NCBI GenBank assembly: GCA_965209085.1
Contig: OZ242376.1
Span: forward strand, 96,001-160,000
Source of the DNA: Nitrosopumilaceae archaeon
GTDB taxonomy: Archaea > Thermoproteota > Nitrososphaeria > Nitrososphaerales > Nitrosopumilaceae
Direction: 5' to 3'
Length of the DNA stretch: 64,000 bases
The translations under genes and the position numbers were made by a program. Of the stretch, positions 33,950 through 62,692 are shown one piece after another (position 1 is the stretch's first letter; each line of letters starts with the position of its first letter). The notes below the pieces were generated by a model. The model did no database searches and was not told where the DNA came from. It worked only from the letters and a program-made list of their open reading frames with translations.

Positions 33950-34027
33950 CGATTATATGCATAATTGATCAAATTCACAATTTTTACGAATAAAAATGAC
34001 TGATTTGAATAATTATGCATACGATCT
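33950..34027. mobile_element. 78-bp palindromic mini-element related to the IS110 ends
   Basis: 33957-34020 is close to the reverse complement of 61649-61712; bounded by AAT on both sides (33947-33949, 34028-34030). Confidence 0.7.
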
Positions 34028-55506: not shown

Positions 55507-55587
55507 GTATGAGGTCACATCATGCCTAGAATTTACGCAATAAATGAAGATGTAGGCACAAAATAGCACGAGGTGCTGACCTCATAC
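55507..55587. repeat. intact 81-bp palindromic repeat family A (empty IS110 target)
   Basis: GTATGAGGTCA...TGACCTCATAC termini, inner TGCCTA/TAGGCA stem, loop GCAATAAATGAAGATG. Confidence 0.9.
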
Positions 55588-59736: not shown

Positions 59737-60003
59737 ATTGACGTAGATGTAATTGATTTTCTTTTAATCACGATATATCCGGTCGCAGGTCTTCTTGGAA
59801 TTGAAATAATTTTTAGAATTGTAAAAGGATCTCAGTGGTTAAAATTATCAATACAAGGATTGCTCTCACTTGCTTTTGCAATTGCATATGTAGTTTTGAT
59901 TACAGCACATTGGCTCACAGCAATAGTTTTAATTGCGCTGGCTATAGCATTATTTTATCAGTCAAAAAGATCCTTGTTGCATCCTGGCAAATCTCCTTAC
60001 TAG
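59737..60003 (+). CDS. 3-TM membrane protein with apparent ATT start, missed by ORF track
   Basis: Frame (I/M)DVDVIDFLLITIYPVAG...AHWLTAIVLIALAIALFYQ...KSPY* fills the GINS-AN1 gap and overlaps the AN1 stop by 4 nt. Confidence 0.65.
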   Translation: MDVDVIDFLLITIYPVAGLLGIEIIFRIVKGSQWLKLSIQGLLSLAFAIAYVVLITAHWLTAIVLIALAIALFYQSKRSLLHPGKSPY

Positions 60004-60218
60004 TTGCGGCCAAAAATTCTACTCAAAAATCCTTTTTTTGGACCGCCGTCTCGAATTATTTTTTTTCCACCAAACTTTTTTGATCTGATTTGTGTTAATT
60101 TCACACAACGGTGATCCTCTGGCAACCTATGTTCTGTACAAAAGGGATCTTTACAGTAATTACACTCAAATGGCATATCGATCATATCTCCACAATACGC
60201 ACACGGTTTTTCAAGCAT
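60000..60218 (-). CDS. AN1-type zinc finger protein
   Basis: CAYC....MPFECNYC...FC.EHRLPE.H.C. Confidence 0.9.
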   Translation of the reverse strand: MLEKPCAYCGDMIDMPFECNYCKDPFCTEHRLPEDHRCVKLTQIRSKKFGGKKIIRDGGPKKGFLSRIFGRN

Positions 60219-60399
60219 ATGGTTTCATTTGAATAATCTGCCTATTAAACATCTAGACCATTTTGACGTATGAGGTCACGTCATGCCTAGAATTTATGCA
60301 ATAAATAGACCGTATCCATGTGAATACTTTTTAAAGGTTTCTTGCTTTTTTGTGTCATGCGGTATGGCTTTCGCTATGTGTCTGGTTCCAACCAAAAGA

Positions 60400-60515
60400 T
60401 AAAAGACATCTATCCATTCGGGATTTAATCCCACAACCATCTTCATCTACATGTTAAAGCTTACCGCAGTTATGCAGCCGGGGTAACATCCCCAAAGTCT
60501 AACCCGCGGTTTGTT
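60400..60515 (-). ncRNA. candidate bridge/seek RNA
   Basis: Two nested stem-loops holding exact matches to the target junction (60438-60446) and the element end (60495-60502); G.U pairs favour the minus strand. Confidence 0.55.
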
Positions 60516-60518
60516 GCT

Positions 60519-61640
60519 TTAACGATGATGTATTTCAAATTCACTCCTATCCTTTAGCATACGAAATATGATATCCAGCATCTTGGCCGCTGCTGCAACT
60601 TTGGCCTTGGATGATCCTCTCTTTTTTGCAAGACGCCGGTAAAATTCAGAAATGTTACTCTCTGATGCAAATCGGACATGTGTGGTAACAGCTTCCACCA
60701 ATGCCCACCGCATCATCCTGCTGCCTCTTTTTGTTATATGTCCGTGATGGACCACATCTGCTGAATTACGAACCGATGGGGCAAGACCCGCATATGATTT
60801 GAGTTGTTTTGGTTCAGAAAATCTCTCAACTCCATCAATCTCTGCTGCCAGTATCAATGAAATAAAATCACCTATGCCAGGTATTATCTTGAGCAACATT
60901 GCATCCTTGTTTGAACAGGATGCGTTGTGTACCTTTATGTTTGAGTCTGCAATTTTTGTATTAACGAATCCAATAGAATCCAAATATCCGTTTATACGGT
61001 AATCCTTTAGAGAACGCAGTTTTCTATTGTATGTAAGCGTAAATGTTGCTCCAAAGATCTTTATCCCTCCCTGTAATAAAATTCCATGTATTTTGTTTTT
61101 TAGAGTTGTCCTTGTCTTGACAAGACTGTCGCGATATCGTACAAGTTGCCGTTGTTCCACTATGTCCTTGTTTGAGACATGACAGAGGGATATGTATCCG
61201 CATCGTAACAGATCTGCAAGTGTTACAGCATCCCTCTTGTCGGTCTTTTTCTTGGATGCGGCGATGATTTTTGTCGCCCATGGATTTGACAATACGACAT
61301 TATAACCCATTTTATCTGTCATGTATCGATATAGACCGTACCATACGGATGAAGATTCCATTACGATTTTTGCATTTTCAGGTACGCTTGATCTGAAGAA
61401 TCGACTGATGGACTTGTTTTCATTTTCAATCCTCTCATTAAAAATCACTTTGGCTTTTTTATCCATCATTGCAACTTGAAGAAATTTCTTGTGAACGTCC
61501 ATTCCAACAAACATATTCTTCCCAGAATATGTGGTAATCTGTTTGTTTGCATTTGGATCTTTTTTAGATGATTTACGTTTCGGTGATACGGATCGTTTGA
61601 CATTCTTACAACCATCTGTGGTCTTAGAAGCTCTCTTCAC
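60519..61640 (-). CDS. IS110 family transposase/recombinase
   Basis: DEDD residues (GMDVHK, MESS, KTDKRDA), IPGIG, YAGLAP...SA, ARK-like AAKML; alternative start at 61514. Confidence 0.95.
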   Translation of the reverse strand: MKRASKTTDGCKNVKRSVSPKRKSSKKDPNANKQITTYSGKNMFVGMDVHKKFLQVAMMDKKAKVIFNERIENENKSISRFFRSSVPENAKIVMESSSVWYGLYRYMTDKMGYNVVLSNPWATKIIAASKKKTDKRDAVTLADLLRCGYISLCHVSNKDIVEQRQLVRYRDSLVKTRTTLKNKIHGILLQGGIKIFGATFTLTYNRKLRSLKDYRINGYLDSIGFVNTKIADSNIKVHNASCSNKDAMLLKIIPGIGDFISLILAAEIDGVERFSEPKQLKSYAGLAPSVRNSADVVHHGHITKRGSRMMRWALVEAVTTHVRFASESNISEFYRRLAKKRGSSKAKVAAAAKMLDIIFRMLKDRSEFEIHHR

Positions 61641-61772
61641 ATATGGTTATGCATAATCGTTCAAATTGGTCATTTTTATTCGTAAAAATTGTGAATTTGA
61701 CCCATTATGCATGAAGTCTAATGAAGATGTATGCATAAAATAACACGAGGTACTGACCTCATACATTTTGAC

Positions 61773-61853
61773 ACGTAAGTTTATGCTGTGCCTATAATTT
61801 ACACGAAAAATCAAGATCTAGGCACAAAATAAGACTGGGCGTTGACCTCATAC
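61773..61853. repeat. degenerate tandem copy of repeat family A
   Basis: TGCCTATAATTTAC...AAGATCTAGGCACAAAATA...TGACCTCATAC. Confidence 0.75.
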
Positions 61854-61948
61854 ATTTTGATAGAAATTGCATGCGTGGTCATTTTATATCTGATAATTCT
61901 AGGCGACATTATATCGTTATATCCAAATATGCCGTTATCACAGATAAT

Positions 61949-62692
61949 ATGATGTTAAAGGATAAAGTGGCAATAATAACCGGTGCAAGTAGCGGCATTG
62001 GACGAGCTACTGCCATCGCACTAGCCGGCCAGGGTTGTAAAGTGGCCATTGGAGCTAGAAGAACATCCAATCTTGAAAAACTACAAGATGAAATTGAAAA
62101 ATCCGGTGGACAGGCTTTTGCACAAAAGCTTGATGTTTCTGATAGACATAGCTGTGAATCATTTGTAAAAGAAGTTTTAAAAAAATGGAACGAAGTGGAC
62201 ATACTGGTAAACAATGCTGGTCTTATGCCGTTGAGTTTTTTTAAGAATTTAAAATATGACGAATGGGATCAAATGATCGACGTAAACATAAAAGGTGTTC
62301 TCTACTGTACCGGCGCGGTCATTAATCACATGAAATCCAAAAAATCTGGTCATATTGTAAATATTTCATCCGTTGCAGGAAGAATTGTTTTTCCTTCTGG
62401 CAGTGTTTATTGTGCTACAAAACATGCCGTAACCGCATTAAGCGAAGGACTTCGTCAGGAATTTAGCGCACGTTCGAACATACGTGTAACATGCATAGAA
62501 CCTGGTGTTGTGGCAACAGAACTAACCCACACTATAACCGATGAATCCTTGAAAGATTTTGTCGATAAAGCAAAAACCATGGAATCTCTTTCAGCCGATG
62601 ATATTGCAAAAGCAATTGTATATGCCGTGGATTCCCCTATGAATGTAAACGTAAACGAGATTCTCATAAGACCTACTACGCAGGAGCGTTAG
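61949..62692 (+). CDS. short-chain dehydrogenase/reductase
   Basis: TGASSGIG, NNAG, YCATK; start moved to MMLKDK. Confidence 0.93.
   Translation: MMLKDKVAIITGASSGIGRATAIALAGQGCKVAIGARRTSNLEKLQDEIEKSGGQAFAQKLDVSDRHSCESFVKEVLKKWNEVDILVNNAGLMPLSFFKNLKYDEWDQMIDVNIKGVLYCTGAVINHMKSKKSGHIVNISSVAGRIVFPSGSVYCATKHAVTALSEGLRQEFSARSNIRVTCIEPGVVATELTHTITDESLKDFVDKAKTMESLSADDIAKAIVYAVDSPMNVNVNEILIRPTTQER

Follow-up and report, generated by a model that had tools for sequence, protein, structure and literature searches.

What has been inserted into an interrupted palindromic repeat, and what it recognised there, are the questions raised by one locus in the genome of a Nitrosopumilaceae archaeon (GenBank assembly GCA_965209085.1). 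The window analysed here, 64,000 nt long, comprises bases 96001-160000 of a single 1.69-Mb contig (OZ242376.1, 41% G+C), to which all genome coordinates refer. Within it a 1413-bp block at 60307-61719 interrupts one copy of an 81-bp palindromic repeat, here called MITE-A (MITE, miniature inverted-repeat transposable element), and the block encodes a transposase of the IS110 family of insertion sequences (ISs). An original prediction, made from the sequence, took the whole block for a single IS110 element that had entered the repeat loop at an AAT core, with the repeat family as its preferred target. We read the locus instead as three nested mobile elements, with an IS110-family IS in one end of a second, 78-bp MITE (MITE-B), which itself lies in MITE-A. 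We put the probability of this reading at about 0.85.

Three nested elements in one repeat copy

The sequence features from which the original prediction started are present. An intact MITE-A stands at 55507-55587 with the sequence quoted for it and displays the empty site. The left flank of the block terminates ...TTTATGCAATAAAT at 60306 and the right flank starts AATGAAGATG at 61720, with AAT at both sides, and the 81-bp repeat is reconstituted from 60268-60306 (39 nt) and 61723-61764 (42 nt).

The bounds given to the element do not hold. The block is a composite of a 1332-bp IS at 60316-61647 and an outer 9 + 69 nt (60307-60315 and 61651-61719) which make up MITE-B, a near-palindrome present at 44 genomic loci, 36 of them solo and eight adjoining an IS copy. 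Since the outer 78 nt are also found alone at these 36 loci, with A-N-T duplications of their own, the AAT triplets at 60304-60306 and 61720-61722 are the target duplication of MITE-B and not the core of the IS. The IS core is ATA in transposase orientation, that is, TAT on the + strand at 60313-60315 and 61648-61650.

The ends of the IS were set by two empty-site comparisons, one for the copy in the window (c1) and one for c4, both among the seven longest genomic copies (c1-c7) obtained when the block was searched against the genome with BLAST. For c1, a solo MITE-B without an IS (genome 1111177-1111254) is the same as the outer parts of the window block at 78/78 nt. For c4, an unoccupied end of IS-X, a DDE-type IS described below (genome 855435), is identical over the left 60 nt and on the right side continues directly with AAACTCT-AAT (by inspection). 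In both comparisons the inserted piece runs from ACCATATGTG... to ...TTCACATGG, and ATA, single when the site is empty, flanks the insert on both sides, which fits the shared core of an IS110 element with no true target duplication. All other IS copies have the same ends as the window copy. The assembled contigs of four runs, which break at repeats and cannot show rare forms, contained neither an empty allele of the locus nor a MITE-only allele. A contig joint that skips 1416 (X4, depth 4.4) was considered as an empty allele and rejected, its flanks being those of another MITE-A copy (genome 1641079).

The layout of the locus is as follows (window coordinates, with strand where one applies):
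55507..55587: intact MITE-A, empty-site reference for the first level of nesting; terminal inverted repeat GTATGAGGTCA...TGACCTCATAC
60268..60306: left part of MITE-A, 39 nt, ending in AAT (60304-60306)
60307..60315: MITE-B tip AGACCG plus TAT, the latter (60313-60315) being one copy of the IS core
60316..61647, minus strand: IS110-family (IS1111-like) element, 1332 bp, by empty-site comparison
61648..61650: second core triplet, TAT on the + strand
61651..61719: rest of MITE-B, 69 nt, comprising the hairpin body and the GAAGTCT tip
61720..61722: second AAT, the MITE-B target duplication
61723..61764: right part of MITE-A, 42 nt
33950..34027 (genome 129950-130027): solo MITE-B in the window, IS-free, with ATT on both sides

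MITE-B is most likely mobilised in trans by the DDE transposase of IS-X, because the two have in common the terminal inverted repeat AGA-NNN-T-ATGCAT-AAT and a 3-bp A-N-T duplication. IS-X is 1355 bp long, with 23 near-full copies (12 with identical A-N-T flanks), and encodes DDE_Tnp_4 (PF13359, 3.2e-21) and HTH_Tnp_4 domains. Identical triplets flank 18 of the 36 solo MITE-B copies by gapless projection (AAT 8, ATT 7, ACT 1, AGT 2); among random 78-bp intervals triplets match in 2.4%, and as A-N-T in 0.22%. The insertion sites of MITE-B carry a weak motif, Y at -1 in 18/21 and R at +1 in 19/21, which describes the site choice of the DDE element and not that of the IS110-family IS. Elements of the IS5 subgroup make 3-bp A-N-T duplications. 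IS-X and MITE-B resemble IS5-family elements with such duplications and their MITEs in the DDE_Tnp_1/4-type transposase, the terminal inverted repeats (~17 nt) and the short duplication of fixed length, but the NCBIfam IS5 equivalog models score IS-X below their cut-offs. A full IS-X copy (genome 559669-561068) lies inside an IS110-family copy, between positions ~576 and 580 of the latter, and the two types of IS therefore interrupt each other.

MITE-B might alternatively derive by deletion from an IS110 variant with long ends, in which case the DEDD enzyme would move it and A-N-T would be the IS110 core. Taking the DNA between the two IS repeats, and nothing else, out of the block does leave MITE-B, and one variant of the 5' guide discussed below, AGACUU, is complementary to an AAGTCT tip. 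However, the same tips and A-N-T duplications bound the 23 copies of the DDE_Tnp_4 IS and other MITE families, and dozens of unoccupied ...ATTATGCAT-A-NNNTCT sites followed by A-N-T occur in the genome, in several repeat families. MITE-B lacks both IS repeats and so would not be read by the second loop of the candidate RNA. The 78/78-identical solo copy exists despite a family-wide divergence of 5-13%, and the MITE and IS parts are discordant in some copies. We regard this derivation as scarcely credible. An assignment of the 6 nt beside the IS repeats to the IS as 'extensions', which would make the first RNA loop the donor loop, was dropped on account of the same unoccupied ...ATGCAT-A-NNNTCT sites.

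MITE-A has 22 uninterrupted genomic copies covering at least 68 of the 81 nt, all with a contiguous centre. Folded as DNA (-14.3 kcal/mol, z = -4.3), the copy at 55507-55587 leaves AAT unpaired in its centre. Duplications of 8-9 bp surround several other copies, and MITE-A is thus itself a MITE. A degenerate second MITE-A-like copy lies at 61775-61855, 10 bp past the interrupted one. At genome 1531382-1533101 (L111) MITE-A ends stand 1.64 kb apart, enclosing open reading frames (ORFs) for a 165-aa SocA/Panacea protein (PF13274, 8e-24) and a 118-aa protein without family. This insert holds no transposase, and was rejected as the source of a parent transposase given that it codes for the SocA/Panacea-domain protein; the MITE-A ends there bracket a small cargo, possibly a toxin-antitoxin-like pair.

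Site and orientation of the IS110-family insertions

Insertions of the IS110-family element are specific in both site and orientation, and strike the inverted repeats of an IS5-type IS and its MITEs. A junction pattern search gave 24 matches, 17 of which are IS copies, the other seven being excluded by comparison with BLAST coordinates. NNNTCT followed by A(A/T)T comes next at 15 of the 17 downstream junctions, and the remaining two have the near-variants AGGTCC-ATT and ACTCT-AAA; A(T/A)TATGCAT precedes the IS at 11 of 12 upstream junctions, the exception being c7. What the IS enters is the terminal inverted repeat of the IS5-type IS and its MITEs, ...ATTATGC-ATA-NNNTCT. At the window locus the insertion point falls between ...ATTATGC-ATA and CGGTCT, 6 nt from the tip (9 nt with the core triplet). 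Orientation is constant, with the downstream IS end always toward the repeat tip. The hosts are MITE-B (8 junctions) and full-length IS-X (3 junctions), and 105 unoccupied tips of the target type remain in the genome. In c1-c3 the IS occupies the MITE-B arm that contains ATA and not the arm with ATGCAT-G, a class of which 45 tips are unoccupied; less frequent insertion at an ATG core would account for this choice of arm.

These junctions bear directly on the single-element reading. Its notion of a multi-copy hairpin as a landing site survives in so far as the IS does land in a multi-copy palindromic repeat, but the true target is the IS5-type inverted repeat and not the 81-bp repeat. The single-element reading also fails the refuting test that was set with it: none of the other 16 downstream or 11 upstream junctions lies in MITE-A, and the IS ends are not 60307/61719. 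Copies c4 and c5, located in IS-X ends, are without the outer MITE-B parts. Despite AAT bounding the block at both sides and the empty site displayed by the intact repeat, a single IS110 element spanning 60307-61719 with MITE-A as its target is highly improbable.

Transposase and candidate guide RNA

By its sequence the element is assigned to the IS110 family and is IS1111-like. The transposase ORF (61640..60519, minus strand) scores above the cut-offs of PF01548 (DEDD_Tnp_IS110, 7.3e-28), PF02371 (Transposase_20, 1.3e-21) and the NCBI IS110 model NF033542 (219 bits, cut-off 140), as expected for the IS110-family transposase predicted in the block. Residues D50, E97, D136, D139, P290, S291 and S295 are invariant in 7/7 aligned relatives, and the G--P----S(G) motif with the conserved Ser is GL(A/V)PSVRNSA, with SA rather than SG in the window copy. 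The IS inverted repeats, CCAT(AT)GTGAA, have nine matches and a 2-nt indel, with 0-1 nt between repeat and core. The non-coding DNA amounts to 203 nt downstream of the transposase and, upstream, to 7 nt as far as the GTG or 133 nt as far as the ATG at 61514, where the conserved catalytic part begins. The frame is open only in c1 and c2; c3, c6 and c7 are frameshifted, and c4 and c5 have a common in-frame TGA. The genome also holds a second IS110-family lineage of ~60% protein identity, interrupted by a TAA in every copy (genome 666535, 730169, 857773 and 1173449); beyond the downstream repeat its four copies are identical for over 30 nt.

Features within the IS, all on the minus strand, are listed below:
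60316..60324: downstream-end inverted repeat TTCACATGG (transposase orientation)
60327..60336: TATA-like CTTTAAAAAG in the downstream end, in conserved columns; a possible promoter element
60404..60521: core of the candidate bridge/seek-type RNA, with P1 (containing the stop codon), P2, target loop, P3, Px, donor loop and P4
60494..60503: putative target loop, 5' segment GUUAGACUUU, complementary to the top strand over the last core base, the NNNTCT tip and the first bases of the duplication
60469..60479: putative target loop, 3' segment GGCUGCAUAAC, in the same sense as the left target TGC and the core ATA (plus AC of the IS)
60433..60444: putative donor loop, 5' segment GAAGAUGGUUGU, in which AUGGUUGU would pair with ATA-ACCAT (core plus upstream IS end) with one G-T wobble
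60408..60419: putative donor loop, 3' segment GAAUGGAUAGAU, in which AUGGAUA reads as the downstream IS end ATGG plus the core ATA, in the same sense
60519..61640: transposase ORF, 373 codons from the GTG within the upstream repeat
61636..61647: upstream-end inverted repeat ACCATATGTGAA (transposase orientation)

In the predicted fold of the 203 nt that follow the stop codon, helices P1 and P2 lead to an internal loop and hairpin P3; helix Px (GGAU/AUCC) comes next, then a second internal loop, hairpin P4 and finally a GNRA hairpin. Related loci were collected from Nitrosopumilaceae genome records (80) and from near relatives (30), and 70 elements in 22 families were kept. With 18 of the 22 family representatives as input, RNAalifold returned 21 pairs, 13 of them with compensatory changes. 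A search of 59800-62200 against Rfam (E-value mode) matched no family, i.e. no curated model fits.

An unbiased 7-mer map compared the non-coding region of each element with the DNA beside its own repeats, weighted by family, with swapped flanks as a control. Elements with a truncated or duplicated non-coding region were left out of both this map and the loop comparison (L097, L099, c3, L084), and L031 and L038 out of the map as well. On the left of the IS, the flanking DNA is matched in the same sense by the 3' segment of loop 1 in 15.7 families (1.1 in the control). On the right, the 5' segment of loop 1 matches in antisense, with 7.1 families in each of two adjacent bins (control, 0.2). For loop 2, a same-sense match of the 3' segment to the IS end was counted in 9.7 families (control, 2.4). 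A third, target-reading part of the RNA did not emerge from the map, which held no further consistent peak and otherwise only scattered hits and tandem-duplication artefacts (L077, L095/L017). It is therefore likely, from these matches and the IS boundaries given above, that loop 1 reads the target and loop 2 the joined IS ends.

The guide covaries with the host repeat across the 22 relatives. In eight copies of this genome a C/G difference in the guide tracks GTCT versus CTCT tips, with AGAGUU pairing with AACTCT tips (c4, c5, f561) and AGACUU with (A/C/T)GGTCT tips (c1, c2, f1682, f1168, f1642). For c4, A-AACTCT-AA is matched at 9/9 positions by the complementary 5' target segment UUAGAGUUU. 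In the window copy UUAGACUUU faces A-CGGTCT-AT with one wobble, and its AT(T) triplet gives two mismatches (c2, with an AAT triplet, has one). UGCAUA is followed by AC, two bases that agree with the IS and not with the target, and that may, by analogy, act like the handshake bases described for IS621 (PMC11208158).

One RNA match would favour MITE-A as the target. A 9-nt stretch, AUGAAGAUG, is complementary to the MITE-A flank CATCTTCAT, a length reached by only 0.7% of 50,000 random A-N-T sites. Yet helix Px takes up the first two bases of this stretch and the donor loop the remainder, and AUGAAG, which is most of the 9-mer, is conserved in most of the 17 aligned relatives, whose flanks differ. 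One such match over the 23 sites examined is not unexpected (~15%), and the insertion at this flank is that of MITE-B, not of the IS. We judge the match to be due to chance.

By analogy with published seekRNA and bridge RNA work, the ~200-nt downstream region would be made into an RNA with two internal loops, of which loop 1 would recognise the target and loop 2 would recognise the joined ends of a circular IS in the same geometry, and the recombinase, with its DEDD and Ser residues, would exchange strands at ATA. The circle junction expected from these ends is ...TTCACATGG-ATA-ACCATATGTG..., i.e. ...CACATGG-ATA-ACCATATG...; the junction GAAGTCT-AAT-AGACCG proposed earlier is wrong, since its AAT is the MITE-B duplication.

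Two further features of the element concern its expression. (C/T)TTA(A/T)AAA in the downstream end (60327-60336, minus strand) is kept in 18/18 aligned relatives, and in the circular form this TATA-like element would precede the GTG of the upstream repeat by ~22 nt. As this is the archaeal TATA-to-start spacing, it suggests a circle-junction promoter for a leaderless transposase mRNA. At 61515-61640 (minus strand), and in L002, L003, L004, L010 and L017, the frame is open from the repeat GTG (..PYV..) to the conserved M-x-VG-x-D-x-HK. The stretch between the two, 40-70 residues rich in Lys, Arg and Ser, has an open frame in 6/7 aligned relatives, and may be translated as a basic N-terminal tail of the transposase.

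Order of insertion, relatives and known systems

The nesting suggests a sequence of three events. MITE-A would have been at the locus first; MITE-B would then have entered its centre by DDE-type transposition, with the A-N-T duplication giving rise to the two AATs; and the 1332-bp IS would finally have entered one MITE-B inverted repeat, downstream end toward the tip.

Several observations weigh against this account or against the RNA-guided targeting proposed with it. The upstream junction of c7 lies in no recognisable repeat, and c6 is without a matching duplication. Hairpin P3 was seen by eye only and is absent from the RNAalifold output. Over the six tip bases CGGTCT, the 5' guide of the window copy makes four Watson-Crick pairs, one wobble and one mismatch; c3, f675 and f728/f959 have the AGACUU guide next to CTCT-type tips, and in f557 the fit of guide to target is poor. 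The assembled contigs of the four runs, in which rare forms cannot be seen, showed no circle junction or back-joint. One report describes the IS1111 group with terminal extensions of 7 bp and 3 bp outside the sub-terminal repeats (PMC11187229), whereas here 0-1 nt separates the repeats from the core. The events at the locus may also have come in either order: MITE-B first and then the IS, or a MITE-B bearing the IS moving in.

In the latter case the IS-X transposase would have moved MITE-B and its IS as a unit into MITE-A, and the IS insertion would be older than that of MITE-B. The same composite stands at three loci (c1, c2, c3) with its own matching triplets (AAT, ATT and AAT, respectively), and the MITE parts of these composites differ by only 1-2/72 nt. 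On the other hand, the IS lies 9 nt from the tip of the inverted repeat that it splits, and transposase binding at that end should suffer. At genome 1623121 the MITE part is 98.6% identical to the window copy and the IS fragment only 89.6%; the IS adjoins the MITE body in both orientations of the latter (three and five copies), and is also found in full-length IS-X ends. This discordant divergence, together with the two orientations and the IS-X hosts, fits repeated independent targeting, and movement as a unit appears unlikely.

Related IS lineages lie in this type of repeat as well. The IS is followed by CGGTCT-AAT in L003/L093, by TGCATAAAGTCT-AGT in L065, and by ATGCATA(A/C)GGTCT, six bases further in, in L010/L016, where the guides CUUGUGCAU and CGUAUGCAU match. 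The tip motif exceeds a reversed-pattern control in genomes with a related IS (57 vs 3 in G001, 80 vs 1 in G042, 4 vs 0 in G041). In two further sets, L031-L042 with L076 (OZ250170) and L043-L055 with L094 (CBDFGF), ~35-40 nt of conserved but diverged DNA are present on one IS side only, in one of the sets as the palindrome GGTGATCnGATCAC; the IS copies there may target the tips of other repeats. L098, a 44%-identical relative on a 1.3-kb contig labelled Campylobacterales, belongs to an otherwise archaeal clade and may reflect a binning error or transfer.

The closest known counterparts are bacterial. IS4321 and IS5075 reportedly sit in the repeats of Tn21-family transposons, an observation attributed to Partridge and Hall in 2003. 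Like the present element, they are DEDD-transposase ISs at one fixed position and orientation within the inverted repeat of an unrelated transposon, which have inverted repeats of their own close to the ends and whose gene is followed by long non-coding DNA. They differ in host and target, here an archaeon of the Nitrosopumilaceae and the repeat of an IS5-type IS and its MITEs, and in the IS repeats, which adjoin the core here and lie 7 and 3 bp further inward there.

Three reports bear on the comparison with guide RNA systems. The first gives target logos for IS4321, sub-terminal inverted repeats of 7-17 bp for the IS1111 group, and IS1111 seekRNAs in which the top-strand-complementary segment comes before the bottom-strand one (PMC11187229). 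The seekRNA systems of ISEc11, ISPa11 and ISKpn4, which are retargeted through guide changes and whose targets include multi-copy repeats (REP, attC), share with our element the downstream non-coding region and the segment order, the putative loops here being read from the sequence (PMC11187229). IS621 has a target loop followed by a donor loop, each with two segments that include the core, as well as the DEDD and Ser residues (PMC11208160, PMC11208158); in contrast to the candidate RNA here, its RNA lies upstream of the gene with the strand order of the segments reversed (PMC11208160), and its core is CT (2 nt) and not ATA (PMC11208160, PMC11208158). In the open literature we found no published Nitrosopumilaceae IS110-family element described as repeat-targeting, although the supplementary IS tables of two of these reports may list such elements (PMC11208160, PMC11187229).

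Targeting of transposon ends is already known for bacterial IS1111-group elements, IS4321 and IS5075 being the closest, and the present locus adds an archaeal example of a transposon aimed at transposons but no new principle. It also corrects a tempting misreading, in that what looked like an IS110 core and its repeat target are the duplication and the body of another element, a MITE driven by a DDE enzyme. In annotation, the boundaries of IS110-family elements in these archaea are best set from empty host-repeat sites. Taken together, the observations would accord with a Nitrosopumilaceae clade of IS1111-like elements parasitic on transposons, with guide loops tuned to the tips of co-resident IS5-type ISs and MITEs and with related lineages at shifted positions (L010/L016 and L065, six bases further in). 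The hosts would be disabled and the IS would gain a harmless multi-copy home, while the TATA-like element and GTG brought together in the circle would form a promoter for a leaderless mRNA encoding a transposase with a conserved basic N-terminal tail. We offer this joint picture tentatively, at somewhat less than even odds. For work on bridge recombinases, these ammonia-oxidising archaea provide a natural series of 22 related guide/target pairs, with visible retargeting along one repeat.

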